From Haplodiscus bocki (taxonomy: Eukaryota), in NCBI GenBank assembly GCA_965655095.1, contig OZ296648.1, positions 155,992,001-156,056,000 of the forward strand: a stretch of 64,000 nt of DNA, written 5' to 3'. Positions within the stretch are counted from its first letter, which is position 1. Each line of letters opens with the position of its first letter. Below are positions 801 to 34,700 of the stretch, in pieces. The notes under the pieces were generated by a model. The model was not told where the DNA came from, searched no databases, and saw only the letters and a list, made by a program, of their open reading frames with translations. The translations under genes and the position numbers were made by a program.

Positions 801-825
801 AGGAGAAAACATCGTCAGGAGAAAA

Positions 826-10134: not shown

Positions 10135-10499
10135 TGTAGGTACCTGGGACATGGGCGTATTCTCTGCAGAAACAATTCCTATCTCACTCAACGAGAACAC
10201 TTTCATTAATGTGAACTCCGAAAATTCTTATGATGAACGGAAGCGTTGCCTCTTAATTTGTAACAAAGACGGAGTTTATCTATTCGGTGACCCATTGGTC
10301 TTACGCCTCGAAGCCTGAAAGAAAGTTAACAAGCGTCTGAACTATGCTAATTTCAGTTGTGAAGAGCTAATTCAAAAAACTCTTCAACCGCCTATATCGC
10401 ATTTATGTGGACTTTAATGTTTTACTTTGATCATTGTTTTCAAGGGTTGCTACCATGTAATACCGCTAATGGATGATGAACGCTAATTAGGATTTGTAA
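10135..10499 (+). pseudogene. Adenain-like protease relic, copy 2
   Basis: Duplicate of 826-1190. Confidence 0.75.
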
Positions 10500-13377
10500 A
10501 AGATTTATATACTTTATTTTATCTTCGCTCACGTCATATTTAACAAGTTTTCAAAATCTTTTTTCAATACAGGTTGAATCAAAGTGGAAGGGAAGCATTT
10601 CATAGTTTATAGTACCATAGCCAGAATAATAAATATCAACAATCATACAAAAAAGGCTGCATGTTGACCATCAAGTATCAGACAGTCTATTGTGAAAAAG
10701 TGGAGATAAGTCGCTGGTTTGCGCTGATCATTCATTTCAGTGGTTTGAATGGCTGATTCTTCATTTGGTTTGCGTAGTCTTTTCGTGTTTTTGAAAAAAA
10801 GGGTCCTGTCGTCCAGATTCCTGTTACATGTCACTGCTCGATTAGGTTTTTTAAATGTTTCACCGATCAACTAGTAGTAGGTATCAGACGAGAAAGTTGA
10901 GTATAAACAGGGCACAGCGTACCCCTTTTCTCGCTTTTGAAATTTGTATCTTGATTCCAGAACATGATAATGTTTTTCCTTAATGTCTTAGTATTCGCTT
11001 TCTTCAGAGGGCAACCCAGAAGCATAAAAGATGTCTTTTTCAAAATCTTTTCCCGCAAGCGGTTCTCCAAAACAAAGACGATACCGAAAGTTTTCAAAAA
11101 ACTTCATGAAAAAAATTGGGCGATTGTTCGTCCATAGCCCCAACAACTGAAAAGGTCACAATTGGTAACATTCAAGGAACAAACTTACGGCTTCAAAAAG
11201 AAAATGCTCTTGGCATGGAAGATCGAATTGAAGGAAGATGTATGTTCACGGGTAAAAACGCTCAAAGGAAAAATTATATAGCTCCTGCGGGATATACACA
11301 ATCTGGGAACTTTAGAGAATTGTTTGTTAGATGGTATCTCTCGCTTAATAGTTGGCATCACATACTCCTCCTAGGGTCCTGGTTGAATTCTAAAAATCTC
11401 TCCATTGTTGGTCGAGTGATGAAACTCAGAAGCAGTGAGAGTAAGTTGTTGATCCAGATAATAGTCATCATGAAATTTGTTGAAAAGTTCCAGAAACAAG
11501 TAGGTCCCCGTGTTGCGATAAACTTTAGATAAAAATGGTAATAGATGCCTCTCAATTCTCTAAACAACGATGTAGCTATCCCCGAAATCTTTTGTCAGTA
11601 GTGGCAGAGAATTGACGATACATTCTTTCGAGCAGTTAGGCAAACTGGAGCAGAAAACTGTATCCCAGGGAAAGTAAGAAATTGAATGGTACAAGCTGTT
11701 GAAATAAAGCTAGACAAAGAATGCTTGAAGTAAGCAACTGAAACTTTTATGCTAGAAAGAAACTGTTAACTTTGTTTACAAGCAATTATATTAATTGGCA
11801 AACAAAGAGAAAAAAATTGGGTCGAAATACTGTGAAAAAAGGAACGTGCAGGGACCTGTTTCACTACCTGTAGACAAACTCCATCTGTAGCCTACAGAAA
11901 ATCATTGATTGAAAAATTGAGAAGATCACGATCATTATTCGTTTAACGGCTGGTAAACATGTTTGTACCCAGTTAAAGCTGGCGATCTGCACAAAACATG
12001 TAAACAAACTGTCTGAAGTCCAGACAAAACACGTAACGTAAACAAAAACCATTTTTGGTTGTCACCATTCAAAAAATCTTTTTACAATAAGTAGTTAGGA
12101 TAAGTAGTTATCCTTTTACGATAACAGTCAAAGTGGCAACTGGGTCCCCTGATTAAAAGTTGTTTTCATAGTGATTCCAAAATTTCGATACTACACGTAA
12201 TCTAACCTGAGATAATCAAGACTGTAAACACTCATTAATCAAAGAATGACAATAGAGACTCAAACCTTCACCAGCTATTATTGTTCCTATCATTAAACTT
12301 CTTACGAAACTTGGTTGAATAAACCGGCGGCTGGTCAGAGATGAGAAGTCAGATGACGAGTGGAGCATCAAAAAATCAGTATCCAAGACATATTTGGTCT
12401 GTTGAAGAGCAAGAGCGTCCCACCTAACATTGTCAGGAGTTTGGAAACTGTGGGCCTTGCAGAGGAAAAAATTCATATAAGTATAAATGTTGACCGTTTC
12501 GAATTACCTCTTAGTGTCCGAGAAGTCTTATTCCGTTTCTATTTTGATGACACAACCCTATCCGAGAACCAGTTGGGTTATCAGTCGGACTGAGAAACCT
12601 TAGAGTGGTATTGTCAGACAATTAACAATCCGCAGTCTCCGTGTCTGAAAGAAGTAACATCGCCATCTTCATTTTAATCTCCCCCTTATCAAGATAGCAA
12701 TGAGGAAAGAACAGAATTTATTCAGCTGGAAGCTCTTCTGAAGTCGAGCCCTTCCTTCTCTCCTGAATATCCTTCCTGAAATTGGAATACCGTCCCACAC
12801 TTTCACCACAAGTAGAGACACAAGATCTTTCCAAACTTTGAACTATTTTTTATTTGATAAAAACATTCATGACTATCTTCTACATTTTCCGATAATCAAC
12901 AATAAGCTATTTTGTATTAGTTTTTTAAATTCTTCAGCATGATTATTTGCAATTTGAGGATTGATATTGCAGAAGCGGTTAGTCTAAGTCCTCCGCTAAA
13001 ACAGAAGAAATGCAAGCACTCGGGCATAATTTACAGTAAGCGGGAGGCAGTTAAATCAGAATAAACAAACTTCAAAGAAATCGCGCGTATGAATCTAGTC
13101 ATAGTTGAGTTGAAAAGGCACAAGTGGTCATCAGATAACAAAAGCCATCAGCAAAAGTTTATATTTGAACAAACAAAGAACGAGAGGTGCTTGTTTTTAC
13201 ATCAAGATGAAGGACACTATCATAAACATTCAGAACTGCTTCAAAAGTTACGCATCCGATGAGATGACCTACTTTTACCCTGCAGCGTTAGTCAACAAAA
13301 CAGACGATCGTAAACAAAAGGGGAAACCTTACTTTCAAGTTTTCAAATTCAGTTTAATAAACTCAGCAACGGAAAAA

Positions 13378-16196
13378 ATGATAAACTGTGATATTTGCAG
13401 CAAAACTTTTGCTAAGAAGTGAAACATGTATCGGCATCTCCGCAATATTAATAACACTGACACGTCGAAGTCAGAGCAGTGAAACTGCATCGAATATCCT
13501 TTCAAAAGTTCCTCTATGGCAGTAATGACGAAACAAGAGGCCATCTCCAGTTCCAAAATTACCAGGCGACATGGTTCGCAACTTATGTATTGCATTTTGA
13601 TTTTGAGTCGCCCATTAAACTGGTAGCGACATGCTCCAACGCTTCTGATAGAAGCTCAAACGAGATTATAGAACAACATGAACCTTGAGGCTATTGCCTG
13701 GTTGTTATCGAGCACAGCAATGCAGAACCAGCCTTTTTCAAATTGGAAAGATCTTCTAATTGTATGCAAAGTCTCGTCAAAAACTTACAAAAACTTGCAA
13801 AACATCGTAACTACACAGGATCAACTCAGTTTCCATCCGATCAGTGCTGGATTTGTGAACGAGATTTAGATGAAAACGATGTAATTTTATATCAGTCATA
13901 CCAGCGGAAAGTTCCTAGGTTTCGCACACAGTAAATGCAACTTTGAACGACGCACAGTACATTCCGATATTTGCTCATTTTCGAATTTTGATTTATTTTT
14001 TGCTAAAATCTACACCTTTTCCAGAATGGAGCAAAACTCGAGTCAATCCTGTAACCGACGAAAAACATACCGATTTCGATTGGCATGACAGTTGCGTCTT
14101 ACACCGACCGCCGAGGGGTTGAAAAAAATTTAACTTTTTTTTAGTCTTACGTTTTGTCGACTCTTATAGATTTATGGCTTCATCACTAGACAAACTTGTG
14201 AGTTATTTACCTGCAGATTATTTCAGTTTATTGCATAATCACTTTCCTCAACATTGTTCCGACGATTTGCAACTACTCCATCAAAATGGTCTTTACCCCA
14301 CCTCTTATTTCGATTCCCTTGAGAAACTTCAATAAAAAGCCATGCCCAGTGTAGAGAAAGGGACAAACTCTCCAATATGGTCAGGTGTCAATGACTACAG
14401 AGAAATTTCAACATGCAACAAAAGTTCCGAAAGTTTGGGTGCAAAAACCTCGGTAGTTACCACGACCTTTACCTAACAACGGACACTGTGCTACTTGCAA
14501 GTGCGGTTGAGCAGTTTCGATAAGTTACTTACACTACTTACGGATTGGTTAGTGCTCACCAAAACACGTGTTCTCATTTTTCTGGCGATGGTTTCCTAAA
14601 AGTTACTAAAGCAAGAGTTGAATTGCTCACAGACCGTAGTCATTTGGAGATGGCTAAGAACTTGATCCTAGGGGGTCTCTTCAATGGTTTCAAAGCGTTT
14701 GGCAGGATGGACTTCAAGAAACAAAAGCCAGATCATACAGTCTCCTCATTGAAGCAAACAACCTTTATGGTGGAATTATGCAGAAAATTCCACTTCCTTT
14801 GAGAGATTTTGAGATTGTTGAACTTGTTGAGCTGAATTCTCAAAACCGCAAACGACCCCGAAATTGTTTTCGGATTAGAAGTCGATTTCCGATGCCCTCC
14901 ATAACTTGCACAAGGGCTTTTCCAATGGCTCCAACCAAGCAGAAAATTGATCGCAAGATGTTATCCGAGTATCAGATGGGTCTATCGGACCCAATAGGCA
15001 ATAGACGGGTTACCAATCCAAAGCATGTTCAGACTTTATTCGCCAAGAATAAATACACGGTTCATTACATTACTCTAAAACCCCACGTGAATCTTGGTCT
15101 CAACGTTACCAAAGTACATCAATTCCTTCAGCTCAAAAAAAGTGGCAGTACCCGTATATCAGCCTGAACACCAGAATGCGAACCCAGTCAAGGAACAAGT
15201 TCGAAGAGTCATTTTATAGGCCGATGAACATTTCTCGTTAAAGAAAAACTCGAAAGTAAACGAAACAGAGTCAACGTGAAACTAGTTAAAACAAGAGAAG
15301 CTGTCCTTGAAAACTCTGTGAAAGGTTTGATGAAATCAATCAACATCTTCGACGAAAACCTGGTAATAATTACGAGTCGAATGGGACAAATTTACTAGGA
15401 TACGCTAACACTAATGGGCGCTTGCATACTCGATCACGCCAAGTTCCATATGTACGAATTCCATTACAAGGGAAGCATAACATGTCAAAATCAGTACATC
15501 TATCCCAAAAACTGAAACAAAGGAACTGGTGTAATTTGCACCTATATAGTTTGAATCAAATATCATTAGGTATCCAAGCGAAATGATCTAGAGGCCATGA
15601 CAAAAACGATCGGAAGCCGACGGTAGGGTTTTCAAAACAACCTCATTCGAATAAAAAAAAATGTTTTATTCCCAGGTAATCAAGAATACGTTTCGTTACT
15701 CGCTATTGTATTCAGGCACTGACTTGCAATTAGAAGAGATCAGAGGAGAGGATTTTCATGAAGAAAAAGCAAGCAACCCAAACAACCTCATGCTAGAGAA
15801 CCATTTCGACTGTTCCAATTACCCAACTGGCAGCCCTCTTCATTGTGACAAAAACAAGATGATCTCACTCAAATTCAAAGATGGGATGGCAAGGAAAATC
15901 ATCCGCGAAATCCTTGGTCTCAAAGCCAAGATGAACTCAATAAACTATGAGAACCAGAGAAAATGTTAGAAGGCATATTTTGATTCGCTCAAACTTCACC
16001 GAAACATGCTATCTACAGTCGTGTTCTAGTCAGTGGTAACCACATGAGGTCAAACAACATAAGTTTTGGTTCTTCAAAACATCTCCAAACCATTCGAAAC
16101 CAAAAATCATTGAAGGCCTTTGACGACAAACGTTTCAAACCAAACGATGGCATACATTGTCTTCCTTTCGGCCACTTCGAAATAAGAGACTGGTAA
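13378..16196 (+). pseudogene. polB: Protein-primed PolB relic, copy 2 (insert at 15471-15675)
   Basis: Duplicate of 4069-6887. Confidence 0.92.
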
Positions 16197-16786
16197 CTGT
16201 ACAGAGGAATCCTAGGAGACGATGATTGAGGAGTTAAGAGCAAAAGGAAACGCCAGAAAGTAGTCCAACTTGGTCAACTCTAATCAGGATTTTCAGCTTC
16301 CCCTGCTAGCAACGTTTCATCGCTTTCAAACTATGATCCTGACCGTGAAGGGGTCATCCATGAAGTTGACACACAAATCTCAGATGAGATAAGCACCCCT
16401 CCTGACACTGGAGAGCATCAACAAGATTACTGGGCAATTGAACCGGGAGAGGTCATTTACTTCGAGGAAGAAACAACGGCATATTCGAGTGCTAGACAAA
16501 AAACGCTTCACTGACGACGAAGCTGAAGTAGAATCCTTCCGAGACTTCGATTCAGCCTATGACGACCTAACAATCGACTATAGTTCCTTGAAGGACCTTT
16601 CGGCACCAAGGTTTCCCGCCCTTTTCGATGTTTCCCAACCTAAGAGAACAGTTGTAATAATTTCAAGTGGTACTGAGTAAAATTTGATCGTACAAAAGGA
16701 TTTGGGTGGAACATTGTTCAACTGTTTTTAATCATACACGATGAAAAAAGTTTTGAAGTGTTTCTTTTCACGTAGATAACACCCAC

Positions 16787-17099
16787 ATCCCGGAAGTGAG
16801 CATAAAAAGCCTCAGCGAAAGACCGCAGGTAAAAGCCCTTGCGAGAATGGGCACGCAAAAAGACCATGCAAAAAAGCGCACGGAAAACCCCCCAGCGAAA
16901 GAGCGCACGGAAAAGCCCCTATGAAAAAGCGCACGGAAAAAGTCCGCATCCCGCAAAAGAGCGCACGGAAAAGACCCTCCCGCGAAAGAGCGCACGGAAA
17001 AAGCCTCCGCGAAAGAGCACACGGAAAAAGCCCCTACGATAGAGCGAACGGAAGAAGCCCCTGCGAAAGAGCGCGCTAAAAAGCCCCAGCAACACAGCA
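16787..17099 (+). repeat. 27-bp RKSARKKP coding minisatellite, copy 2
   Basis: Duplicate of 7478-7790. Confidence 0.9.
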
Positions 17100-19138
17100 G
17101 ATGTGAACAGCCTGTGCGAAAAAATTTGTAGATTTCTGCACAGTGGACGTTCGTAAGAAGAAAGGATTCAAAATCTCCAGCCTCATACAACACCGTTCGA
17201 GACAGAGCCGGTAAAAGAGCACCGAGAAGGACAGAAGTAGCTGTTGTGCGGTTCCGGACACACCACAAGGGTGAGTTTTTCGGACATAGTCCTGCTGGAA
17301 AAAGACAGATTCAAGAAAAAGACATAGTAGTTGATAAAAATGCATCAGTTCAACTATTTTCACCATTAATGATACATTTCCCTTTACCTGTTCCGAAATT
17401 TGGAAAATGAACTTTAGTTTCCTGAAATCATTTTCTGAATATAATCCCAATCCAAATCTGAATGTTTTATACTCAAGCTTGGAACAACATATGTAAAAAA
17501 TCATTTTGCTTCAAGACTGAATACAGAGGAACACATGTTTCTTCAGAATCGTGAAGCATTCAATTTCTTAAATGCATGGATAAACGCTTGTATTAACTTC
17601 AAATCAGTAGAGGTGTTACAAATACCTTCTTTTCGAACTAGACAATCTTTGACACCCGCTGTTTTTAAGATCTTCCGAGCGCGAGGAGTAATCTGAGCTC
17701 CTGGGGAGGGACTATGGATTCCAGTTCGGGCGCTGGCTTGATATGTACCCTAATTCCGGTGTGAGATCCAATGACATAAAAAAAGCACATTGTGTATGTT
17801 CTGTAGATCCCAAGAACCGAGAACTTTATGGAATCTTTTCCGATAGGCCCTTCCAGTAGCTCCCATCACAGCAAGGGTTTCCGTTCTTTTAGTTTTCTCT
17901 CCATTAGCGATATCTCCGGCTCCGTCGCCTACCATAACAGTTGCCCGCCTTCGAACTCTCTGTGCCCGCTGAAGTGTGGCTGACGCGTGGTGTTACGTTT
18001 AGGAGTACCTCTTCCATCTCAAGTTTGAAAACTAACTGTTATGTTCGCTGGAAAAACCGTGGAACCAAAAGTGTGGTTTGAAAAACCGGAAATTAATCCC
18101 TTCCTCGAAACTTTTCGAAACTTTAGGATGGAAATTAACAATTTTTTTCGAATAATTTTAAAATAGGAACAAGGAAAGACTTATCAAAATAAGAAAACAT
18201 ATAACACTCAGGTGGTTAAAAAAAATTTGAAAGACACAAATTGGTTGTACAAAAACTTTGTGCAACATAGAAGTTTCAGAAGTTTTTTAAATGGAACCGC
18301 TCTCTTAGCGAAAAATTCAACAAGAATTTCGAAGCAGAAGACTGTTGACAGTTTTGGTTAGAAGGGTATATTTTATTTGGATCCACACTCTTAGCAGAAA
18401 ATTCAACAAGAATCTTGAAGAACGAGACTGACTAATGTTGTCAGCTTTGGTTAGAAAGGTAAATTTTTTACTAGTAGTAGAAAAGTCTTTTGTTAAAAGT
18501 TAGGTTCGATATTGCCTTTGTGTTTCCGCAACTTCAAAGAAGCGCAGTTCAACTTTGAATAGAGTGAGACTAGTAGAAGCGGGGATGAACGCTTCTCCTT
18601 CACCTAGGTCACAAAGTAAACAAACTTGAAATACCTTTAGTCTGTCCCAGGCTACATGTAAATTTTATTTACAAGCCAAGATTCACCCGCGAAATACCTG
18701 TTTTGGGTTTTGTTTCAAGGATTCACCCGCAAAAAAATTGATATAATCTTAGGATTGACCCGCGAAAAACCATGTGAATCCTTATACTACTAGCTCATCA
18801 CAGAAAATTGTGAAATGCTTAGTTGAGGCCGCTGTGGTAACGGGAAAGGCCTTCAAAGATGAGCATCTGTCAAACAATTCATAATTAGTTGAAATGGAAA
18901 AATAGAATTTTCTATCAGCTGAAATGCTAAAATATCAAATTTTCTGTTAATCTGTTTCTAGAGAACAAGCTTGAGCTAAACTGAGGCAATATCGTGTGGA
19001 CTTGATACGTAAATTCATCTCCAATGAGGGCAAGTTTTGAGGGCACCCAGGAGCATCTTTTCCACTGTTCTGGTATGGAATGCATTAGCCAGAACCCCCA
19101 AAATTGAAAGCACTATTATTTATTCCGCAAAGCTGAAT

Positions 19139-19624
19139 TCAGCAATATTTCTCCTCCAAAGCTTTCAACATCTTCAAAAGTATAGAACAAGCCAAATATG
19201 TGTTGTGCCCTTGTTTTGAATCACTACTTTCCACAAGAGCGAGAAAATTAGTAGTGCATCCCAATCCAATTGATCGCTTCTCTTCAGCAACAATTTTTGC
19301 ATGTATTTCTGTCTGGTCATCTAGTTCTCGAATGAAAACTACTTTTTCACCATTAATAGTGACATCAAGGTGGGTATCATCCCACTTCTTTGAAATGAAA
19401 GTCTCATCAATTTTAGATGTTTCCTTTCCCACAAAATTATGAGTGCTGTTAGAAGGCGTCACAGCCGAATTTCCCGAGCGCCGGTTAACGATTGAACATT
19501 TTGTAACGAACTGATTCCCATATATATCCTTCCGATTGTTGATATCACTTATGAAAGATTGCAATTTTTCTTCTTCACAAAAAATACTCATGTTACTGAA
19601 AAAAGTTTCCGAGTCAAATGACAT
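19139..19624 (-). CDS. Hypothetical 161-aa protein (unknown); only its 3' part is present in duplication copy 1
   Basis: ATG-initiated ORF with globular composition, among the longest in the window; no motif recognised. Confidence 0.3.
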   Translation of the reverse strand: MSFDSETFFSNMSIFCEEEKLQSFISDINNRKDIYGNQFVTKCSIVNRRSGNSAVTPSNSTHNFVGKETSKIDETFISKKWDDTHLDVTINGEKVVFIRELDDQTEIHAKIVAEEKRSIGLGCTTNFLALVESSDSKQGHNTYLACSILLKMLKALEEKYC

Positions 19625-19922: not shown

Positions 19923-21097
19923 ATATATTACACAAAAAGCATCTAAACAATCAGTAAATGGAGGAAGGATTTATAGATTAGGTCATCGTATTGCATAGTT
20001 AACTTCATCGTATTGCATAGTTAACTACATCGATTTAGAAAAAAATCACCACTGAAGGCGCGTCCAGATAAATCACAAAAGCCTTCCCTCCCCAAGTACA
20101 GCGGAAATTGATGATTCTTCAAAATTGCAATAAATCGATTGGAAATCAGATTTTAGATGTACAACTGAGTTTCCAGGTACGTCGAATGATAATTTTTTTC
20201 CGGTATTTTTGAAGTTGTGTCCGACAGTATAATATCCAACATCAGCAAAACAGAAAAGAAATTGTCGTTTGTATTAAAAACTTTGGGAAAATCAAAATAG
20301 GCTAGGAAAAATCCAATTTCTGGAAAAAATTTGGATCTAAACAGTTATTTTCACAATTTTTCATGGAAAATCTTCCAACAACTCAATAATTGAATTGTCA
20401 GGTTTCAAAAAACTGACACCGCTGATGTTTTGAAATAAACTCAACCACGGAAGTTTTTATTACGATATAAATTCGATAATTGAGTTCACAACAGTTTGAT
20501 TGGTTTGTCACTCTATCAGAAACCATAAATCGTCGTCCAGAATCTTGGTGCCTCTCAAAACATCATGCTGGGGGAGCTGGCACACCCAGTTAGTTAGCAC
20601 ACAACAGCACTCAACGTTAAAATTAACATAAGACTACTGCTCCGCTATCGAGTTAATCCGTCAAGCAGGCAAGCAGCGTTACAGTAAACAAGCAGGGAAC
20701 AGCCCAAATCAGCAACGGCCGGACGGCTCAAACTCTCACCTTCCCATCTAAGATTTGGGGAAACGTTAACTTTTCTGACAAATCCATTTTTTTTCGTGAA
20801 CTAAGTTGCAACAAAAGGATCGTTATAAAGGAGATATTAGGAAAAAAACTGGACCGAAAGTCCAATATGTTTCCCATTTTCATCAATCTGTGGTGCTCGA
20901 TTCTTGAGAACGTTGGTTTGAGCTTTGTGAGTTTTTCTTCTGCCTACTTTAAGTACGCCATTTTCTGGTTTTTGGTACGTCTTCTGTAAGCTTAAAGTGA
21001 ACAGGAGTGGTAATGAAAACAAGACGGTCAACTACCACCAGTATAAATTCCTCCCGCCAAAATTGTTGTTTCTTGAGAGAATGGAAACGTTTTTTTC

Positions 21098-21203
21098 AAC
21101 TCCGCCTCTGGGAAGGAAGACCCACACGTGCTTGGTTTCATTATTGGGTTCACTGTGGGAAGAACTATCAGTGCCGGTCCCAAGCCCGGGTAGAGGAGGA
21201 GGG
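21098..21203 (+). ncRNA. Twister self-cleaving ribozyme (P1-type core with a long P3 insertion) at the RTE 5' end
   Basis: c|AA-CTCC-GCC...[P3 hairpin cccacacgtg/cactgtggg]...GCCGGTCCCAAGCCCGGGTA-GA-GGAG-GAGGG. P2 (CTCC/GGAG), P4 (CCGG/CCGG), T1 (CCC/GGG), T2 (GC/GC), catalytic A (21098) and G (21199) match the rice Osa-1-4 twister layout. The P1 5' strand is absent. Confidence 0.85.
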
Positions 21204-23120
21204 TTGCGTCAGCAAGGGCATGCGGCCGTTAAACTCACGTCATCAAATATGAAAGGTCCTTACTCCAGTAACGATAAAGCTAGGGCGTACCCCAGAAGCG
21301 ACACCCGATAACGAGGACCGGGCACCGTGATAAATCAGCAACGCCCAAAACAAAACAAGCAGTTTTGCCAAACGCAACATGGAATGTCGGTACTCTGAAC
21401 GCAAAAAGTGCGGGACTGCTGACTGCTTGAAACGGAGAAACGTCAATATAATTCGTCTACCAGAGACCCGCTGGAAAGTAGTCCAAGCTAAGCAAATTGG
21501 CCATGGGTACAAACTTTTATATTGGCGATCCAAATCATCGAAATAGAGTAGTGATCGCGGTAGCTGAACAAGTGAACCAAAAAGTCAATAAGGAGTCACG
21601 TATCAATGATCCTAACATGGCCATAACAATTTTGGTTGAGGAACTTGGACGACCCATACATACGAACGCAAACTAGGTGTACATGATGCGAGAAAGACGC
21701 GTTCTCCGAGAGCCCAGAGTACGTACTACCGAACCGAAATTGATAAGTGACACGGTACTGGCCGGTGACTTGAATGGCCACAACAGTGAGGAGAGGAATA
21801 TCTAAACTATGACGGTGGTTGGGCTTATGGAACTGTAAAACCTGGGGGACATGGCATCTTGAACTTAGCAGAAGCCAACAGTTTGGTGGTTTTGAAACTC
21901 TACTGAAAAAACAGGTAAGAAACACCTGATTACCTACAAGAGTGGAAGAAAACATACTCAGATTGATGACATATTGGTTTCAGTAAGACGAGAAGCGGTC
22001 AGAAACTAACGAAGGAGTCCTGGTGGTAGAATGAGACAGTTAATGCGGCAACGAAACAGAAAGGAGCAGCATTCCGAAAATGGCAGTTGTCTAACTATGA
22101 TGAAAATCTAACGGCGTACAAACGTAGCGAAAAGAAGCCGAAACTTGAAGTTACCCACGCCAGAGAGCCAGCGTGTGAAGAGCTCAACAAAGAACTGAAC
22201 AGACTAGTGGGACCTCAGAAACTATATCGTTTGGCCAAAGCCAGGCAGGAAGTGGAAAAAAGGTTACCACGGGTTCTTTGTGAAAGACAAAGATGGAATC
22301 CCCATGTTCAGGAAGGACCAGGTTGTCAAGGGATGGGAACTCCACTACGAGAACTTGCTCAATGAGTACAGAGAGTTTGACGAGTTCACACTCAGTGCCC
22401 TCCATTCAAGGTCTTGTCGAAAAAACAACCATAACTGAAGTCCACTACCAGCTGAAAAGAATGAAACAGACAAAACACAGAACAATAACTTTGACCTACC
22501 ATGTTTGACAATCAAAAGTACACGAACCTTCAAAAACCTCCGCTTACTAATGAATGAGGATTTGGGAAACTGCCAAGACGATGTCAAAACTAGATTTGGG
22601 GTCGCCTGCAGGAACTGGCCAAAACTGTCTCCTTTTATCTACGACAAGAAGTTGCCGGAAACTCTGAAGCACCGTGTATACGAAGCTGTAGTCAGACCAC
22701 AACTAATGTATGTATCGGACACTTGGATGCTACGGGACAAAGATACAGATTGACTACAGAGGAAGGCGGCAAAATCCTCAGAAACTTCTATGCAAAAACC
22801 GTGAAGACCATGTCAGGAGCGCTGATTTATTACAGAGTGCCAATTTGCTCCCAATTGAAAAAATGCAACGAACCCAAAGGATAAATTAGTACAGACACTT
22901 TCTACGACTGGACAAAGCGCATGCAACAAGAGCTGCGTTTGGCCTAAAAACAGTTGGTAAGCCTCAAGAGAACGCACAGAGAATCATTGGATGGAAGTCA
23001 TCGCAAAAGGCATGCAAACTAGTGGGATACGCCCGGGGACTGCAAAAGATCGTGAAAAACAGAGGAAGAAGAATATGCCGAACCTGGAGGGAACAAGGCA
23101 GTAAAAGAAATAGCAAAACG
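21098..23120 (+). mobile_element. RTE-clade non-LTR retrotransposon relic (APE endonuclease and C-terminal RT/thumb; RT core deleted)
   Basis: ATWNVGTL, PETRWK, IGHGYKLLY, LAGDLNGH, HLITYKSGRKHTQIDDILV; SPWW*NETVNAATKQK...KLYRLAKAR...; YDKKLPETLKHRVYEAVVRPQLMYVSDTW; RTE-type 5'UTR after the ribozyme. Confidence 0.9.
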
Positions 23121-25639
23121 CAAAGGGAACAGTTTTCTAGAAAAAAAACAGTCTTTATGTCTATCTAATTTTTCCAAAGTTGAAGAATTTCTTGATTTTT
23201 TTTTGCAAAAGCTCCCTTCAAAAATAAAACGAAACGGATATTCTTAAGAAATGTTATAATTTAATTTGCATTGCATAGTAAGAATTCCTATAAACCGGTG
23301 ATAAAATTTTCAAAGTCAGAGTCAACCGGTTTCGATGTTCTGCCTGGACAACAGTCAAGTAAACCTCAAAAACAAACCGTGGTGAATGGATGATGTTCCT
23401 TCCAAATATATATTATGGTAGAAAATACCAAAAAAACCTGACAAGCTAAGTTGCAGCATAAGCAATTCTAAGCGTCGAGACTGAAAAAAAGTGGTTTTTA
23501 TACCTTGTTGGTGAAAAGAGAAGCCAAGCCGAAGATGAATGCTTCAAGTTTCGAAAGTTTTGGACAAACGAAAGGTATGATACAAGCCAATTGTATGGCT
23601 CAAGGGCTAATCTCCAGCACAAGTACGCCAAAATACATACACGAAATGGGCAATTAATGCAAATGACGGTATATTTGATGTTTTTGCTAATTCTTCGCCA
23701 AAACCCCGCCGAAAAAAAAACAGTTTTTTTCACCAAATGGGCATCAAGAAACGAAGCATTTGCATCCATTCCATTACCAAACATACCCGCAACAGACAGC
23801 AAGGTAGTGATGCTACTCAAAAGACAACGGTTGCCGGGCAAATTTCTGCCGTTTTCATTATAATTTCGCTAACCAGAATGGGATGAAGAAAATTTGCACG
23901 CCGAAAAAAATGGGCATTGTCAATCACGATCATTTCGTTGCTTTTTGAAAAAAGAACTAGAACGCTCCAACAAAGACGTTTGGAGACACAACGCTTTAAA
24001 ATAGGAAACGCAGAGGGATGTCAAAATATTTGGCTGTGACAAATGAAAAGAAGCTGGCGCTGTTTGGAAATTCCCGTAAATCGTCTCAATAGGTTTCGCT
24101 TCACAGAAGCTAAGTTTATTTAAAAAAATGCAAAAGTTGGGCTACCTAGTGAAATTATGTGAGCGGCCATCAAGACTACAAATTGAACACGAGTAGCAGT
24201 TTCAAGCTTAAAGAAACTAGATTGGCTGGCTCAATCGTTCTACAAACAGTTTACAGCCGGGCTCAATTCATAATAACCATCGCTCAATGAACAAACAGTA
24301 AACATTTGTCAGACACACAAGAGCTTTTTGAAGTCTAATTGGCATGAATTTTTTGAATAACTAGTTTAATCAAGTTAATATTAATGATTTTCTGCGTGGA
24401 AGGCCTTTCATTAGAAGTTTTTGGCAAAAAATCTGAAAAACAAAAACACATTGCCACTGCCAATGACTTTTAAAGAGCAATCAACAAGAGTAGAAGCCGG
24501 ACAGAACATCTGATGAGACATGTTGGTCGTATAACGGATCTCCTTGTTCTATCCCTCGACTCCAAGTCCAAAAATCTCCTCGAGATTATGCAGCATCTCC
24601 TCAAAGACAAGGTTTAGAAATTTGAAAAAAAACACTAGCACGACGTTGTCAACAACGCGTTAAAGCCTCGCTCTTGCAGCAATAACATTCCGTCCTTCGT
24701 TAAGGACTTGAACACAATTATTGTTGATAACGAGTAAAAAAATACCGATATAGTTTACCGGCAACGCAAAATCAAAAGTGTGATCTCAAAGAACATCAGT
24801 CATCGCGTTAATCAGATGAGCATTCAATTATTCGAAGTTGGAAAAAATCTCATCTCTAGATTAAACAATGTGACACGGCATCGTGAATGTCCTTGCTGGA
24901 ATTCGTTTGATCTCTACTGCCGACGGAAATTTGCTGGCAATCCCAGAACATGTAGTCGTCCTAATTTTTTCAAAAGAAGTCAATGAACCAGATGATGATC
25001 CCCGGAGGTCAAAACAGAAGTGCCCATTGCAGAAAACAAGACATTAAAACATCGGTCTGTTAAAAAGATTAGACCTTGTCTTTCGCCTTAGATCGCTTCG
25101 CTGAAATTACTTGTGGTGTTGGTGGTTGGTGTGGTGGGACAAAACTTTTCTTGTTTTTTCATCTGGTTCTGCCTTTTTGTAATTTTCGGCGAGCGGATGT
25201 AAGCCTATTCGCACAAGGGCACGTCAGAAAGGTTTCGTTTTTTTGCCGTCCATGACATCCCTCTGCGTTTCATCTCCTTAAATCTAGCTTTCTCGGAACC
25301 TAATGGTCGGAATTAACCAAATTTTGTCGAAACTCTACCACGGGTGCACGATCTATAATATTTCAAAGTTTCGGCCGTTAAAATTTCATTTTCGGTGAGA
25401 CATTGATGATAAAAATTTAAATTTTCAGATTAGAGGGCAAAGGGTCTAAGTTTGAGTCCTGTCTTTACATTAAGCTTGGAATAGCGACTGTTTTTTTTGC
25501 ACACTCGATGGAACAGCGTTCAGTTGACCGGCCTGCAGTGACAATTTTCCCCAAAAAACTTTGTGCTGAGAATTTTGAATTTTTTTCAAACAGGATGGAC
25601 ATACTCCCCTTTGCCCCCTGAGTCAAACTTCACAATCAT

Positions 25640-27122
25640 TTTTTACAAACACGTTTGAAGGATCCGTTTGCTTATTGCTCAGCTGCCTTGGCAAAGTCTC
25701 AGTTGACCGAAGCCAAATTATTGGCTGGAAAGAAGTTTTTCCCCGGCCAGCTTTCCACGCTAACAATTGAAAAGCCAGGTTTTTTTAGAGAACAAGTGTT
25801 ACTTTATCGCACTTCTCTGGCGTAGTTTTCCATGTAAGGCAATCCATTGCTGGTTAAGTGATGGAAAAGAAGCGTTCGTTGCGTTTTGTTTTTAGCCGAT
25901 TTCTGCCAATTTTTTTCCCACACTGTTTTAGTCCAAAATTTTCTGAAAAAAACTGAGTTTTCAAATAAGTTTCTGTAATCTCCAAAGTTTAGCGCTTTCT
26001 TTCGCCCCTCAAAATCAAGCATATCACCTGAATTGCAGAGAAGACTAAGTAATCTGTTCCGTAGTCAAATTTATAATGACTTTTCTGATGGATTAATCGC
26101 CGAAAAGTCTCAACAGATATGTTTTGTTAAGATTTTCTGAAAAATTATTAGCCTGTTGTACAAAAAATAAAAGTCATCTGGGCGTCGTGAGGCCCACTGT
26201 AAAGCCTGCAGAAGCACTCGAAGTTTTCTGATGATACGGTTGGTTTTAGAAAAGTGGTCGGGCCATGGTACTCTTTAGAAGTAGTGCAATTTTTTTCAGT
26301 TCTTCTTCCCTTTGGCGAAAGTTTTTTACGACCCTCATCCCGGTTGAACTAGCGTCGAAGTCATACCTCCTAATTTCTTTCAGTACCTCGGTGTTCTTAA
26401 TCTAGGTTTGCGCGAAACTTTGGACTGATCTTTCTGAGAAAACTTACCGAAAAAACCCGGCTTTCTGAAAAACTTTTGCCTTTCCAGATAAAAATGTCTT
26501 GATTCAACGTCGTAATTGTCAAGCTTTGGGACACTGTTGCTGTCAGACCACTTCTGCCAAACAATGGCTGCTTTTCGCTGACTTTGCCTGTAACAAAATG
26601 TTCTTTTTCAGCTAACTTTTGTTTAAAATTAGAATGATTGCCTTCAACTTCGGCTGTTATAGTATTGTTCGTTTTCTGCCTAATTTCTTCAGATTTTGAG
26701 GCATGCTGTTCGGCTTTGCATGAGCACGTGGTCAGCAATTAAATCGAGATTGATTTTTGATGTACTTGCAGATTGATTTCTGAATTATATGCTTTGATAT
26801 TGGAGCGGTGGTAGTAGCCTATATTTGAATGAGACAACGTGGCAGGTCAGTGGTGTTTTCGACGTCTTTCACTGTGCCACAATCTTGACCATTGGATTGC
26901 GAAATGTTGGAACCTCAGAACCTCAAAAGACATTTTTGACCGGTCACTTTTTCTAGCATAAGACACTCTTAGCAATTACTTGTCTCAATTTGAGTTTTTC
27001 GAACAAACCTTTCGTTGAGAGATGGTGTAGTAACTTTGAAAGTGTCAATAACTTCCCTGATCGTAGTTTCGAATGTCTTAGATCTTTGATCTGTAATGGT
27101 GAGTCAGATGGTATGTGACATA
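25640..27122 (-). pseudogene. Decayed long ORF of unknown family within the array unit
   Basis: Long semi-open frames; peptide-level similarity to the diverged paralog at 38100-38900. Confidence 0.5.
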
Positions 27123-27369
27123 GTTTAGTTTAAGAAATCCTTTTATTACTCTCTTGAGGCTATTACAATGGCGTTTAATTTTTCACACAAGATAAGTACA
27201 AATATTCGAATCCAAATCAATTTCCCCAACAAACAAATTATCTCAAAACAATAATCACATCCTCACAAAATTGGAAGAAGACAGAAACTTTGGATGTGAA
27301 ACTTGAAAAATGACATAGAGTTTTTTGGGAGCCGGATTAGGTGAAAGGTAATATAGACTCCATTGGTAG

Positions 27370-27965
27370 CGGGTTGAAATATAATTGGGGCCATATGGGA
27401 GAAGGGATTATATGGGGGCCTCGGAAGTGGGATTTAATGGTTGATATTGGAGGCTGATAAAGATTGATCGTACTGGAAGCCGGACTTGATGGACAAAATT
27501 AGAAGCGAGAAATATTGGAGACGGGATATACTGGAAGCTGAATTTGATGAACCATATTGAAAGCGGGATGAAGTAGATTTAATTGGAGGCGGGATACAAT
27601 GAATAATATTGGAAGCAAGATAAAATGGATCATCTTGGAAACTCTATGATATATGTTTCCTTGAAAACAGGAGATGAGGATGTTGGAAGAAGGATTCAAT
27701 GGCAGTTGGATATGATGCACGATTTTATAAGCAAGATAATGTGGGCAGACTGGAAGCACGATAATATAAGATTGATTAGAAGCAGAATAATGTGAATGAG
27801 ATATGAAAGCCAGCTGTGATTAATGATATTGCAAGATAATGAAAGATGTTTGAGATGGAATTTGAAGGCAGATATTGTGGTTAAAACTGGAAAATGATGA
27901 AAGAGAATAGTAGGTTTAAATGGTGGTTGAAATTTTAACCTGATATCGGAAGTGGGATGAAATAA
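27370..27965 (+). repeat. Degenerate minisatellite of ~20 ATATTGGAAGCGGGAT-like cores with variable linkers (present in each array unit, truncated in unit 3)
   Basis: atattggaggctgat, gtactggaagccgga, atattggagacgggat, atactggaagctgaat, atattgaaagcgggat, atattggaagcaagat, atatcggaagtgggat, etc. Confidence 0.7.
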
Positions 27966-28029
27966 ATGTGGGACGTTCAATTTTTCAGCTCGATGAATAA
28001 AAAATAGACTTCCTCGAAGTAGAGTCAAA

Positions 28030-28790
28030 TAAAGAAATCGGTAACCAGTTGATGAATATTTTATCATAAAGTTCCTCGAAACCTCCTGAAAAACTATGAT
28101 AAAAAACCGAATTAAAACAGTTGGCGCTGAGATTTGCTGGTTTTGATTCATTGTGGACGAAAAAGTAATAGAAGTTGCTTTTATTTTTTGTGGTTGATAA
28201 CTTCCATTGATGTGTCATTCCATCGAAAAATACTTTTGCTTAAACAATAACTGATGTTTTCGCGACATTCTGATTTCATCTACAAAAACACTAAACTAAT
28301 AGAAAAGATGATGGTAAAGAGTTTGTAATTTTTGTTTTTAGGTTGATTCAGAGAAGTGGGAATAGGGCGATATAGATCTGCGTTTAATGGAGCAGGACTC
28401 GCTGAAATTGTAAATAGATTTATAGTTTTTTGAAGAAGCCAGTTTCTGAGAAAGGTAATAGTATTTGGATCGATCAACTATTGTCTATCACCGAAAAACA
28501 TCAACACTGTCCATAGTTCCATTGAGATGACTCCAGTTGATACTTTTCTGAAAAAAATTGAGATGATCGTTTTCGGGAACCATTACGGTGAACGCAACAA
28601 ACAAATCGAAATTATAGTATGGGAGGCTTATTTTGGACGGCTCTTACGAAGAATATACTTTCTAGAGGATAAGCAGCAAATTGCAGTTGTAAGTTGATAA
28701 ATTTTTCAAATGTTTGTTGATACTTGTCGTTGTTAACAGAATCGTAGACAACTCGTTAGTTCCCAGAGCAACTTACGGAACATCAGCAAA
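28030..28790 (+). pseudogene. Polinton-type retroviral-like (rve) integrase relic in array unit 1; copies at ~31522-32290 and ~36990-37760
   Basis: Across frameshifts: KPP..KNYD, FVVDNF, IPSKN..TITDVF, DDGKEFV, EKGNSIWIDQL, NTVHSSIEMTPVD, consistent with the DxGxEF and YNNTxHSSxKMTP motifs. Confidence 0.75.
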
Positions 28791-31700
28791 AATGGTTAGG
28801 CGATGGAACGAGAAACATTAGTTGCATTCAGTCTTAAACCGATTGTTTCCTGATTTTTCAAATTTTTTCGACCGACATTTGTGAACAGAAAATTGAATTC
28901 TCAAATAATACTTTGCATTATCTAAAAATTAGCGCGTCCAGCATGCCTCAAGTGTTGCATGTTATCTGAGTTGAGGAACAATTCAAGCAACACGTATAAC
29001 AACGTGTTTTGAGACACGTTTTGACTGTGACAGATTTTTTCTCATGTATTTGGTGCCATAGTTTGTCAAAAAATACATTTCCTTAAACTTTGTCGACTTT
29101 CCAAAAACGTTTTGCCCGATTGCACAATCATTTTTTACAAACACGTTTGAAGGATCCGTTTGCTTATTGCTCAGCTGCATTGGCAGAGTCTTAGTTGATC
29201 GAAGCCAAATTATTGGCTGGAAAGAAATTTTTCCCCGGCCAGCTTTCCACGGTAACAATTGAAAAACCGTGTTTTTTCAGAGAACAAGTGTTACTTTATC
29301 GCACTTCTCTGGCGTAGTTTTGCATGTAAGGCAATCCATTGCTGGTTAAGTGATGGAAAAGAAGCGTTCGTTGCGTTTTGTTTTTAGCCGATTTCTGCAA
29401 ACTTTTTTCCCACAGTGTTTTAGTCCAAAATTTTCTGAAAAAAACTGAGTTTTCAAATAAACTTCTGTAATCTCCAAAGTTTAGCGCTTTCTTTCGCCCC
29501 TCAAAGTCAAGCATATCATCTCAATTGCAGAGAAGGCTAAGTAATCTGTTCCGTAGTCAAATTTATAATGACTTTTCTGATGGATTAATCGCCGAAAAGC
29601 CTCAATAGATATGTTTTGTTAAGATTTTCTGAAAAATTATTAGCCTGTTGTACAAATAATAAAAGTCATCTGGGCGTCGTGAGGCCCACTGGAAAGCCTG
29701 CAGAAGCACTCGAAGTGTTCTGATGATACGGTTCGTTTTAGAAAAGTGGTCGGGCCATGGTACTCTTTAGAAGTAGTGCAATTTTTTTCAGTTCTTCTTC
29801 CCTTTGGCGAAAGTTTTTTACGACCCTCATCCCGGTTGAACTAGCGTCGAAGTCATACCTCCTAATTTCTTTCAGTACCTCGGTGTTCTTAATTTAGGTT
29901 TGCGCGAAACTTTGGACTGATCTTTTTGAGAAAACTTACCGAAAAAACCCGGCTTTCTGAAAAATTTTTGCTTTTCCAGATAAAAATGTCTTGATTCAAC
30001 GTCGTAATTGTCAAGCTTTGGAACACTGTTGCTGTCAGACCACTTCTGCCAAACAATGGCTGCTTTTCGCTGACTTTGCCTGTAACAAAATGTTGTTTTT
30101 CAGCTAACTTTTGTTTAAAATTAGAATGATTGCCTTCAACTTCGGCTGTTATAGTATTGTTCGTTTTCTGCCTAATTTCTTCAGATTTTGAGGCATGCTC
30201 TTCGGCTTTGCATGAGCACGTGGTCAGCAATTAAATCGAGATTGATTTTTGATGTACTTGCAGATTGATTTCTGAATTATATGCTTTGATATTGGAGCGG
30301 TGGTAGTAGCCTATATCTGAATGAGACAACGTGGCAGGTCAGTGGTGTTTTCGATGTCTTTCACTGTGCCACAATCTTGACCATTGGATTGCGAAATGTT
30401 GGAACCTCAGAACCTCAAAAGACATTTTTGACCGGTCACTTTTTCTAACATAAGACACTCTTAACAATTACTTGTCTCAATTTGAGTGTTTCGAACAAAC
30501 CTTTCGTTGAGAGATGGTGTAGTAACTTTTAAAGTGTCAATAACTTCCCTGATTGTAGATTCGAATGTCTTAGATCTTTGATCTGTATTTGTAAGTCAGA
30601 TGGTATGTGACGTAGTTTAGTTTAAGAGATCCTTTTATTACTCTCTTGAAGCTATTACAATGGCGTTTAATTTTTCACTCAAGATAAGTACAAATATTCG
30701 AATCGAAGTCAATTTCCCCAACAAACAAATTATCTCAAAATAATATTCACATCTTCACAAATTTGGAAGAATACAGAAACTTTGGATGTGAAAATTGAAA
30801 AACGACATAGAGTTCTTTGGAAGCCGGATTAGGTGAAAGGTAATGTAGACTCCATTGGTAGCGGGTTGAAATGTAATTGGGGCCATATGGGAGAAGGGAT
30901 GATATGGGGGCCTCGGAAGTGGGATTTAATGGTTGATATTGGAGGCTGATAAAGATTGATGGTACTGGAAGCCGGATTTGATGGACAAAATTAGAAGCGA
31001 GAAATATTGGAGACGGGATATATTGGAAGCTGAATTTCATGAACCATATTGAAAGCGGGATGAAGTAGATTTAATTGGAGGCGGGATACAATGAATAATA
31101 TTGGAAGCAAGATAAAATGGATCATCTTGGAAGCTCTATGATATATGTTTCCTTGAAAACAGGAGATGAGGATGTTGGTAGAACGATTCAATGGCAGTTG
31201 GATATGATGCACGATTTTATAAGCAAGATAATGTGGGCAGACTGGAAGCACGATAATATAAGATTGATTAGAAGCAGAATAATGTGAATGAGATATGAAA
31301 GCCAGCTGTGATTAATGATATTGCAAGATAATGAAAGATGTTTGAGATGGAATTCGAAGGAAGATATTGTGGTTAAAACTGGAAAATGATGAAAGAGAAT
31401 AGTAGGTTTAAATGGTGGTTGAAATTTTAACCTGATATCGGAAATGGGATGAAATAAATGTGGGACGTTCAATTTTTCAGCTCGATAAATAAAAAATATA
31501 CTTCCTCGAAGTAGAGTCAAATAAAGAAATCGGTAACCAGTTGGTGAATACTTTATCATAAAGTTTCTCGAAACCTCCTGAAAAACTATGATAAAAACCG
31601 AATTAAAACTTATTGTTAACAGTTGGTGCTGAGATTTGCTGGTTTTGATTCATTGTGGACGAAAAAGTAATAGAAGTTGCTTTTATTTTTTGTGGTTGAT

Positions 31701-34700
31701 AACTTCCATTGATGTGTCATTCCATCGAAAAATACTTTTGCTTAAACAATAACTGATGTTTTCGCGACATTCTGATTTCATCTACAAAAACACTAAACTA
31801 ATAGAAAAGATGATGGTAAAGAGTTTGTAAGTTTTGTTTATAGGTTGATTCAGAGAAGTGGGAATAGGGCGATATAGATCTGCGTTTAATGGAGCAGGAC
31901 TCGCTGAAATTGTAAATAGATTTATAGTTTTTTGAAGAAGCCAGTTTTTGAGAAAAGTAATAGTATTTGGATCGATCAACTATTGTCTATCACCGAAAAA
32001 CATCAACACTGTCCATAGTTCCATTGAGATGACTCCAGTTGATGCTTTTCTGAAAAAAATTGAGATGATCGTTTTCGGGAACCATTACGGTGAACGCAAC
32101 AAACAAATCAAAATTATAGTATGGGAGGCTTATTTTGGACGGCTCTTATGAAGAATATAATTTCTAGAGGATATGCAGCAAATTGCAGTTGTAAGTTGAT
32201 AAATTTTTCAAATGTTTGTTGATACTTGTCGTTGTTAACAGAATCGTAGACAACTCGTTAGTTCCCAGAGCAACTTAGTGAAAATCAGCAAAAATGATTA
32301 GGCGATGGAACGAGAAACATTAGTTGCATTCAATCTTAAACCGATTGTTTCCTGATATTTCAAATTTTTTCGACCGACATTTGTGAACAGAAAATTGAAT
32401 TCTCAAATAATACTTTGCATTATCTAAAATTTAGCGCGTCCAGCATGCCTCAAGTGTTGCATGTTATCTGAGTTGAGGAACTATTCAAGCAACACGTATA
32501 ACAATGTGTATTGAGACACGTTTTGACTGTGATAGATTTCTTCTCATGTATTTGGTGCCATAGTTTGTCAAAAAATAGGTTTCCTTAAACTTTTTCGACT
32601 TTCCAAAAACGTTTTGCCCGATTGCACAATCATTTTTTACAAACACGTTTGAAGGATGCGTTTGCTTATTGCTCAGCTTCCTTGGCAAAGTCTCAGTTGA
32701 CCCAGGCCAAATTATTGGCTGGAAAGAAGTTTTTCCCCGGCCAGCTTTTGACGGTAACAAGTGAAAAGCCAGGTTTTTTCAGAGAACAAGTGTTACTTTA
32801 TCGCACTTCTCTGGCGTAGTTTTCCATGTAAGGCAACCCATTGCTGGTTAAGTGATGGAAAAGAAGCGTTGTTCGCGTTTTGTTTTTAGCCGATTTCTGC
32901 CAACTTTTTTCCCACAGTGTTTTAGTCCAAAATTTTCTGAAAAAAACTGAGTTTTCAAATAAATTTCTGTAATCTCCCAAGAAAAGCGCTTTCTTTCGCC
33001 CCTCAAAGTCAAGCATATCATCTGAATTGCAGAGAAGACTAAGTAATCTGTTCCGTAGTCAAATTTATAAAGACTTTTCTGATGGATTAATCGCCGAAAA
33101 TTCTCAACAGATATGTTTTGTTAAGATTTTTCTGAAAAATTATTAGCCTGTTGTACAAATAATAAAAGTCATCTGGGCGTCGTGTGGCCCACTGGAAAGC
33201 CTGCAGAAGCACTCGAAGTTTTCTGATGATACGGTTGGTTTTAGAAAAGTGGTCGGGCCATGGTACTCTTTAGATATAGTGCGAAGGTACTCTTTAGATG
33301 TAGTGCAATTTTTTTCAGTTCTTCTTCCCTTTGGCGAAAGTTTTTTACGACCCTCATCCCGGGTGAACCAGCTTCGAATTCATACCTCCTAATTTCTTTC
33401 AGTACCTCGGTGTTCTTAATCTAGGCTTGCGCGAAACTTTGGACTGATCTTTCTGAGAAAACTTACCGAAAAAACCCGGCTTTCTGAAAAATTTTTGCTT
33501 TTCCAGATAAAAATGTCTTGATTCAACGTCGTAATTGTCAAGCTTTGGGGCACTGTTGCTGTCAGACCACTTCCGCCAAACAATGGCTGCTTTTCGCTGA
33601 CTTTGCCTGTAACAAAATGTTCTTTTTCAGCTAACTTTTGTTTAAAATTAGAATGATTGCCTTCAACTTCGGCTGTTATAGTATTGTTCGTTTTCTGCCT
33701 AATTTCTTCAGATTTTGAGGCATGCTCTTCGGTTTTGCATGAGCACGTGGTCAGCAATTAAATCGAGATTGATTTTTGATGTACTTGCAGATTGATTTCT
33801 GAATTATATGCTTTGATATTGGAGCGGTGGTAGTAGCCTATATCTGAATGAGACAACGTGGCAGGTCAGTGGTGTTTTCGACGTCTTTCACTGTGCCACA
33901 ATCTTGACCATTGTATTGCGAAATGTTGAAACCTCAGAACCTCAAAAGACATTTTTGACCGGTCACTTTTTCTAACATAAGACACTCTTAACAATTACTT
34001 GTCTCAATTTGAGTGTTTCGAACAAACCTTTCGTTGAGAGATGGTGTAGTAATATTGAAAGTGTCAATAACTTCCCTGATCGTAGTTTCGAATGTCTTAG
34101 ATTTTGATCTGTATTGGTGAGTCAGATGGCATGTGACGTAGTTTAGTTTAAGAAATCCTTTTATTACTCTCTTGAAGCTATTACAATGGCGTTTAATTTT
34201 TCACACAAGATAAGTACAAATATTCGAATCGAAGTCAATTTCCCCAACAAACAAATTATCTCAAATGAAAAATCACATCCTCACAAATTTGGAAGAATAC
34301 AGAAACTTTGGATGTGAAAATTGAGAAATGACATAGAGTTTTTTGGGAGCCGGATTAGGTGAAAGGTAATATAGACTCCATTGGTAGCGGGTTGAAATAT
34401 AATTGGGGCCATATGGGAGAAGGGATTATATGGGGGCCTCGGAAGTGGGATTTAATGGTTGATATTGGAGGCTGATAAAGATTGATGGTACTGGAAGCCG
34501 GATTTGATGGACAAAATTAGAAGCGAGAAATATTGGAGACGGGATATATTGGAAGCTGAATTTGATGAACCATATTGAAAGCGGGATGAAGTAGATTTAA
34601 TTGGGGGCGGGATACAATGAATAATATTGGAAGCAAGATAAAATGGATCATCTTGGAAGCTCTATGATATATGTTTCCTTGAAAACAGGAGATGAGGATG

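Follow-up and report, generated by a model that had tools for sequence, protein, structure and literature searches.

A twister-P1 motif heads an old LINE copy that carries internal deletions and was likely copied from ribozyme-cut RNA

When a retrotransposon copy begins at the very base where a ribozyme would cut, it may be asked whether the ribozyme produced that end. This question is raised by a 64,000-nucleotide stretch of DNA from Haplodiscus bocki, called here the window, in which a decayed element opens at position 21098 with a twister-like sequence. An earlier note on this DNA had described an RTE retrotransposon starting at the scissile position of a twister ribozyme, and had proposed that the insertion was copied from the self-cleaved RNA. 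The comparisons presented below support this view: an old LINE copy with internal deletions begins exactly with a twister-P1 sequence, and its template was very likely RNA that the ribozyme had already cut. The parts of the predicted ribozyme and of the sequence directly behind it are as follows.

21098..21203, + strand: type-P1 twister without a paired P1, with a predicted cut between C21097 and A21098 (cmscan match to RF03160; P2, T2, P3, P4, L4, G21199 and the T1 partner present)
21100-03 and 21195-98, + strand: the two strands of P2, complementary
21104-05 and 21184-85, + strand: the two strands of T2, complementary
21106..21173, + strand: long P3 arm (alignment, pair counts and folds; length in relatives)
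21174-77 and 21186-89, + strand: the two strands of P4, complementary
21178-85, + strand: L4, which pairs with GAGGG (G21199 then AGGG), complementary
21204..21232, + strand: small hairpin followed by a GUAAA-like tract (9 sequences from several families)

The twister core was found where the earlier note had placed it. The Rfam model twister-P1 (RF03160) matches window positions 21093-21207 with 51.1 bits and an E-value of 2e-10 for the 701 bases searched with cmscan, or 9.9e-8 genome-wide, and P2, T2, P4 and L4/GAGGG are all present. P2, P4, T1 (in its presumed register) and T2 are complementary in the window copy, and the conserved A+1 and the general-base G are in place. We take A21098, the first base after the predicted scissile bond, and G21199, the general base, to be the catalytic residues, following the alignment to the Rfam consensus and the numbering of the twister structure. 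The check with the Rfam model was thus significant, but the score lies below the gathering score of 67.2, so that a scan of the whole window at the gathering threshold returned 0 hits. None of 14 genomic twister-P1 matches reaches 67.2 (the best young copies score 66.8), the long insert and the missing P1 costing score; cmscan aligns 55 bases in the P3 loop where the model has 8. Compared with the family majority, the core of the window copy differs at 2 of 42 positions, 21190 and 21193, both in the 3′ strand of L2, a region found to be tolerant in the rice twister, where most mutants were active (PMC5113685).

Folding predictions were less favourable. In the pseudoknot-free minimum-energy fold of the window copy P3 and P4 are lost and the tip of P3 pairs with L4, to which two tip stretches (21130-35 and 21144-48) are complementary; this counts against our reading, and such pairing may lower the activity of the window copy. 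The energy gap to an active-compatible fold is 13.8 kcal/mol, versus 8.7-12.4 in young copies of another twister-headed family (family C, see below), so that this measure discriminates little and does not separate old from young copies. Nor did thermodynamic folding single out the ribozyme region (z −0.98). RNA made from the window copy would probably retain the ability to cut itself in vitro.

Read directly from the sequence, P1 has a single G-U wobble out of four possible pairs when the native flank is used, and folding of the window copy gave a pair probability of 0.0 for the one P1 pair tested. The flank is unable to form P1, as had been remarked before. That P1 would have to be restored for cleavage is not supported by published work: P1 is described as dispensable for twister (PMC11662667, PMC5113685), its imperfections were without effect in the natural twisters of McKinley et al. 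2024 (PMC11662667), and in the T-variants treated by Liu et al. 2021 P1 is variable and C*AA is cleaved (PMC8501958).

The element that follows the ribozyme is laid out as listed here, together with its candidate target-site duplication (TSD).

21080..21097, + strand: candidate 5′ copy of a decayed TSD, host flank in place of the P1 5′ strand (11/14 matches to 23123-23136; flank unrelated among copies)
21098..23122, + strand: whole decayed LINE copy of RTE-type architecture, about 2.0 kb (BLAST against family copies)
21370..21987, + strand: frameshifted APE endonuclease remnant (APE-like motifs in the translation; the homologous part of family copy L029 aligns to Exo_endo_phos of L098)
21987..21988, + strand: internal deletion 1, a loss of 258-270 bp whose junction shows short microhomology (comparison with family copies)
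22468..22469, + strand: internal deletion 2, about 770-785 bp missing, which takes out the RT core (tblastn of L098; comparison with family copies)
22469..23122, + strand: C-terminal ORF remnant, 3′ end and short decayed tail (comparison with family copies)
23123..23137, + strand: candidate 3′ copy of the TSD, not significant alone

L098, which served as reference protein, is an intact 1135-aa APE+RT frame on a metagenome contig, with Pfam matches to Exo_endo_phos (aa 123-298) and RVT_1 (aa 646-850). When compared by tblastn with the window, it gave matches at aa 438-545 and 918-1015 only, and L029 is matched across RT. Since the matches in the window skip RVT_1, the RT core is absent from the window copy. 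Stops and frameshifts interrupt what is left of the ORF, whose bad decay had been recognised in the earlier note; no intact ORF with RT is present and the window copy is unable to encode its own RT. Its own fragments gave no Pfam match. This copy is likely a relic. The two internal deletions are an addition to the earlier description. GT-AG ends are not seen at their junctions, and splicing was rejected as their origin. The two deletions are shared by none of 12 aligned full copies and 16 further 3′-end loci. The idea of a non-autonomous deleted family was likewise dropped, the two deletions not being common to any copy fetched from genome searches that give lower bounds.

Full-length copies of the family measure 2994-3066 bp between TSDs (about 3.0-3.07 kb). 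They align along the intact APE+RT protein of L098, and their majority frame is open over most of its length. The family can be described as an about 3-kb element with a single ORF encoding APE then RT, no ORF1, and a short 3′ end with a repeat tail. Such a length, a single APE+RT ORF, the lack of ORF1 and a short 3′ end with a repeat tail are features of the RTE clade. The family fits RTE by this architecture, and protein searches returned no clade names. Elsewhere in the window, positions 716-10017 and 10025-19326 form a 9.3-kb tandem duplication, 100% identical, which is either very recent or an assembly artefact, and positions 25631-38098 are taken up by about four units in tandem, 1.9-3.5 kb long and with 96-97% identity. 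A weak Exo_endo_phos match at 63313-63684 (+ strand) is likely another LINE fragment. Scanning of 96 of the 106 open stretches of at least 85 aa in the window revealed only a LINE fragment and one weak DUF match.

Other insertions were then compared in the 1.5-Gb genome, where all counts are lower bounds. A search with window positions 21060-21330 returned 28 places, 19 of which belong to the family of the window copy (family A) and 9 to other families. Three tandem and two inverted places share flanks, which leaves 16 independent family-A insertions in which the 5′ region is kept. Segmental duplications, tandem and inverted, have carried along family-A copies and their flanks at L010, L012 and L013 (G000:C1 16.60-16.61 Mb) and at L015 and L016 (C1 108.70-108.71 Mb). 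In fourteen of the 16 independent insertions the element begins with the AA at the predicted cut site (two of them uncertain by 1-2 nt), and the flanks are unrelated. Positions +1 and +2 are A in 15/15 aligned rows, and upstream columns reach at most 9/15, except position −5 (T, 12/15); no shared sequence beyond T-richness was found upstream of AA in these 15 rows. The common 5′ end at 21098 which the earlier note had suggested looking for in genomic copies is therefore there, and homology within the family stops at 21098 instead of extending well upstream. The two remaining insertions count against a shared start: L024 begins at about +80 and L035 at about +15, the latter because its apparent first 14 bases recur at its 3′ end as a TSD. 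This 15-bp TSD (L035:443-457 and 3393-3407) is itself similar to the start of the element, as would be seen if the end of the cDNA had annealed to the target by microhomology.

Queries from further downstream gave a compatible picture of the 5′ side. The endonuclease region alone produced 14 matches, all at places already known to carry the twister. With the 3′ end as query, 29 places were obtained; the 16 loci fetched are 5′-truncated at about 300 to 2900, or rearranged, and the 5′ starts of such downstream-truncated copies are scattered. Roughly one in two of the copies found extends as far as the AA, and none is longer on the 5′ side. In five loci (L109, L110, L113, L114 and L116) the truncated copies begin no more than about 60 nt away from the right breakpoint of the window copy's large deletion, a clustering that may reflect a pause site of the reverse transcriptase, or only an effect of the query.

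TSDs were scored in the family-A copies for which both ends were available. A significant TSD ending 0-2 nt before AA (p at most 0.011) was found in 4 of 10, namely L029 (perfect 13 bp), L030, L034 and L036. The other 6, including the window copy, have no significant TSD at the assumed start, which counts against our reading. For the window copy, the possible decayed TSD mentioned in the earlier note consists of 11/14 matches between 21080-21093 and 23123-23136, at the distance expected from the 3′ end. An equally good score is obtained with 8.7-9.3% of random flanks (p about 0.09), and this candidate is only suggestive. The element is present in both sequenced samples, and no credible empty site was found in the contigs covering the locus (4 sequencing runs of one study, 2 samples, possibly the source DNA).

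Family A is one of at least five twister-headed families in this genome, whose T2-to-P4 spacings are 69, 30-32, 26-27, about 40 and 6 nt. Most copies of all five families start with AAC. In family E, 4/8 copies start at +3 to +7, which again counts against a shared start. Perfect TSDs adjoin the AA in 3/5 young copies of family C (14-18 bp) and in 2/2 copies tested of family E (13 and 11 bp); none was found for L043, L124 and L125. Both families are young. Family C (L044-L048, L025) is made of near-identical twisters, with (GAA)n tails and an APE+RT+PHD-like ORF. Family E (L122:484-3656, on G000:C106, L123, L077, L079, L084, L085, L089, L091) has a twister without P3 and with a small hairpin after P4, a (GAT)n tail and, in L122, a 1051-aa open frame.

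The following course of events is suggested by these data. An active parent copy would likely have been transcribed from an upstream host promoter. Its RNA would be cut just before A21098, as predicted from the Rfam match and from assays of Perere-3 variants, which would leave a 5′-AA end and discard the 5′ strand of P1. Target-primed reverse transcription would run to this 5′-AA end, so that full-length insertions would start at AA, with new host flank in place of the P1 strand. A new copy would be expected to cut again, since P1 is dispensable. At the DNA level, the shared start, the unrelated flanks, the adjoining TSDs and the dead ORF support such a course. We infer, as the earlier note did, that the insertion was copied from self-cleaved RNA, because the twister lies at the exact boundary, homology stops at 21098, and the TSDs of relatives adjoin the site.

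A shared start at AA might also have another cause, an internal promoter at +1 or a stop of the reverse transcriptase, the twister being vestigial. The few copies that begin some bases downstream would agree with this. It is nevertheless highly improbable in our view, as the catalytic core is kept in five families whose accessory arms are unrelated, each of them beginning at the same base of the fold, and as this bond is cleaved in Perere-3 variants both in vitro and in yeast (PMC8501958). A different difficulty is posed by the uneven preservation of the window copy. Differences were counted against a leave-one-out family majority, and amount to 2/42 in the core, 9/64 in P3 and 313/1599 in the ORF (core versus ORF, Fisher p 0.015). 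The statement of the earlier note that the core is better preserved than the ORF is thus correct for this copy, but does not extend to 12 other copies, which show 90/490 differences in the core (18%), 120/752 in P3 and about 15-16% in the ORF. Since the core of these relatives is not better kept than their ORF, there is no sign of family constraint after insertion. What is well kept in the window copy goes beyond the core: its first ~420 nt (21098-21520) show 9.7% divergence versus 16-22% in the rest, a contrast reached by 0/300 block permutations, and when 575 stretches of 300 nt over 13 copies are each measured against their own copy, the best preserved of all is found in its 5′ part. This is not accounted for by a plain relic and counts against our reading, and the picking of this copy for its intactness contributes to the low 5′ divergence. 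Gene conversion was rejected as a cause, the 5′ part having no excess of variants shared with any one copy.

One way to explain this gradient is that the window copy came from an already broken or deleted parent that was mobilised again in trans, or arose by template switching between two RNAs; only the 5′ part with the ribozyme would then have been under selection, and the ORF would have drifted. Besides the gradient itself, several P3 changes that keep or gain pairs, the weak third-position excess among ORF differences (0.38, p 0.28) and the bipartite RTE derivatives described by Kojima 2018 would fit such a history. We consider it unlikely: neither deletion occurs in any of the 12 aligned full and 16 further 3′-end loci, the 3′ end, which is also needed in cis, is not better preserved (12/55 differences), and the 5′ part lacks the excess of variants shared with one copy. 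Moreover, the gradient of L032 and L033 is similar and goes with a clear excess of third-position differences in the ORF, so that theirs is ordinary lineage divergence of active parents. Retention of the 5′ 400 bases by the host, for example as part of a host transcript with a role in RNA processing or regulation, would go with the nearly intact core, the best-kept 300-nt stretch and the presence of the element in both samples. This is very unlikely, however, given that the copy was picked because it is intact, that the boundary was chosen after looking, that no host gene was detected in the window among the open stretches scanned, and that the family shows no constraint after insertion. An old relic, copied from RNA that had been cut by its ribozyme, remains the reading that we prefer.

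The P3 insertion announced in the earlier note, 66 nt without the closing pair, was recovered at 21106-21173 (68 nt with that pair, 69 in relatives). It consists of a proximal 4-bp stem, a purine-rich internal loop, a CCCACA/UGUGGG stem and an apical stem-loop. Its description as a hairpin is partly supported: the CCCACA-C-GUG/CAC-UGUGGG stem is recovered when the insert is folded in silico, but in the window copy this insert is no stabler than its shuffles (z −0.4, to be compared with −3.6 for L030 and −6.0 for the divergent L028). Pairing as in the proposed structure is found in 82.7% of 526 cells over 14 mostly decayed copies, and 8 pairs are changed on both sides, a number that 16/500 shuffles reach; covariation is weak because the copies are related and mostly decaying. 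A kink-turn pattern (3-nt bulge plus tandem G-A) is readable in the internal loop of the family majority. It has no Rfam match and is changed in the window copy, and in L028 the loop closes into a helix; a kink-turn is doubtful, the pattern not being conserved. The long P3 is likely a family-specific accessory arm with no part in catalysis. That it is unusual in kind is not supported: natural twisters with a P3/L3 of >50 nt are active (McKinley et al. 2024, PMC11662667), and a seahorse family in the list of Liu et al. 2021 has a ~45-nt P3. A 10-mer of the family P3 gave 0 hits in the part of that list searched (Supplementary Document 1).

A scan of metagenomes for long P3 arms returned 11 stretches. 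Five of them (contigs L096, L097, L100, L101 and L104) are one twister with a complete, intact P1 and a low-complexity P3 loop of 68-70 nt, and no RTE frame lies close to it. Among the others, one (L098) heads an intact APE+RT ORF, one is a tandem 5′ duplication, and four are without a clear 3′ core or ORF. The 74-nt P3 of L098 is uncertain, because cmscan prefers an inner start with a 29-nt P3.

Directly behind the ribozyme, the hairpin at 21204-21232 is built of a 3-bp stem, a bulge, a 3-bp stem and a 6-nt loop. It recurs in families A, B and C, in two older relatives, in L098, which stems from a soil metagenome, and in a contaminant contig. Nine rows were aligned (window, L029, L043, L044, L098, L125, L026, L027 and L211), in which 94.4% of 54 cells are paired and 4/6 pairs show changes on both sides. 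Neither the pairing nor the covariation score was reached by any of 500 shuffles, and slid controls gave 24-59%; these controls are flattering, because the structure was drawn by eye from the same sequences. A model based on the hairpin matched only behind family-A twisters among 45 sources. In the genome, a 12-mer alone gave 33 matches versus 12 for a control, and 6 of 30 fetched lie behind a twister, the rest looking unrelated. In viral and prokaryotic contigs, all of the 84 loci examined out of >126 matches to the hairpin pattern were chance-like except one. This exception, L211, a 2754-bp contig of a bacterial assembly, carries two twister-plus-hairpin units and RTE-like ORF pieces, and is likely eukaryotic contamination. 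Families D and E have a different hairpin before a similar tract.

The hairpin may resemble the zebrafish DANA SINE. Identity with the Vhc block of V-SINEs was rejected, the Vhc SINE consensus sequences in the part of the PMC4758252 supplement covered being without the motif. It is also absent from the supplement of Kojima 2018. Its first half is present in the seahorse T-variants listed by Liu et al. 2021, without comment in the parts of the paper covered here (PMC8501958). A prior description was found neither in the literature searched nor in the Rfam scans. It is possible, if rather doubtful, that the twister and the bulged hairpin (AGGGCA loop, GUAAA tract) make up a two-part 5′ module of a broad RTE-like group, undescribed so far, which would serve the uncapped RNA, most likely in translation start or in binding the protein of the element. 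Should the uncapped RNA prove to need the hairpin for its translation, this would be relevant to the way in which LINE RNAs trimmed by a ribozyme are translated.

The twister-headed LINE described here is a real, further member of a published arrangement. Twisters in the 5′ region of RTE elements, for which the earlier note had cited Perere-3, are indeed reported by Liu et al. 2021 (PMC8501958), who describe for this element cleavage, 5′-AA ends, activity of C*AA and translation after cleavage. As in the Perere-3 T-variants (RTE clade, Schistosoma mansoni), a type-P1 twister forms the first bases of an APE+RT LINE, which starts with AA and is adjacent to the TSD. In Perere-3 the adjacent TSD forms the 5′ strand of P1 (PMC8501958); here too flank replaces this strand, P2, P4/L4 and GAGGG are near-identical, and the C before AA is tolerated in the Perere-3 assays. 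The differences lie in P3, which has 68-69 nt in family A versus about 22-27 in the Perere-3 examples given in that paper (PMC8501958), in the sequence behind the ribozyme and in the low copy number (about 30 places found). In addition, the window copy is decayed and without RT core, and the twister is known here from its sequence, whereas that of Perere-3 was assayed. Closer in some respects are the seahorse T-variants (Supplementary Document 1 of Liu et al. 2021), with a variable flank, an AAC start, a ~45-nt P3 and the same 3′ flank as family A, an 11-mer of which occurs 378 times in the supplement as covered here.

One more genome is thereby added to the published principle that RTE-type LINEs trim their RNA with a P1-less twister. 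The five families, with arms of 6 to 69 nt and young copies bearing perfect TSDs, offer a natural series for the roles of the arms and of the hairpin. In a review that cites work in preparation, truncated but active twisters are said to be conserved at the 5′ ends of the RTE superfamily, with a likely function in 5′-end processing and promotion of translation (de la Pena et al. 2020, PMC7761336). HDV-like ribozymes, which head R2, RTE, L1Tc and other LINEs, would free the element RNA from the host co-transcript and fix its 5′ end (PMC6765202, PMC5786205), the same job as inferred for the present twister, performed by an unrelated fold.
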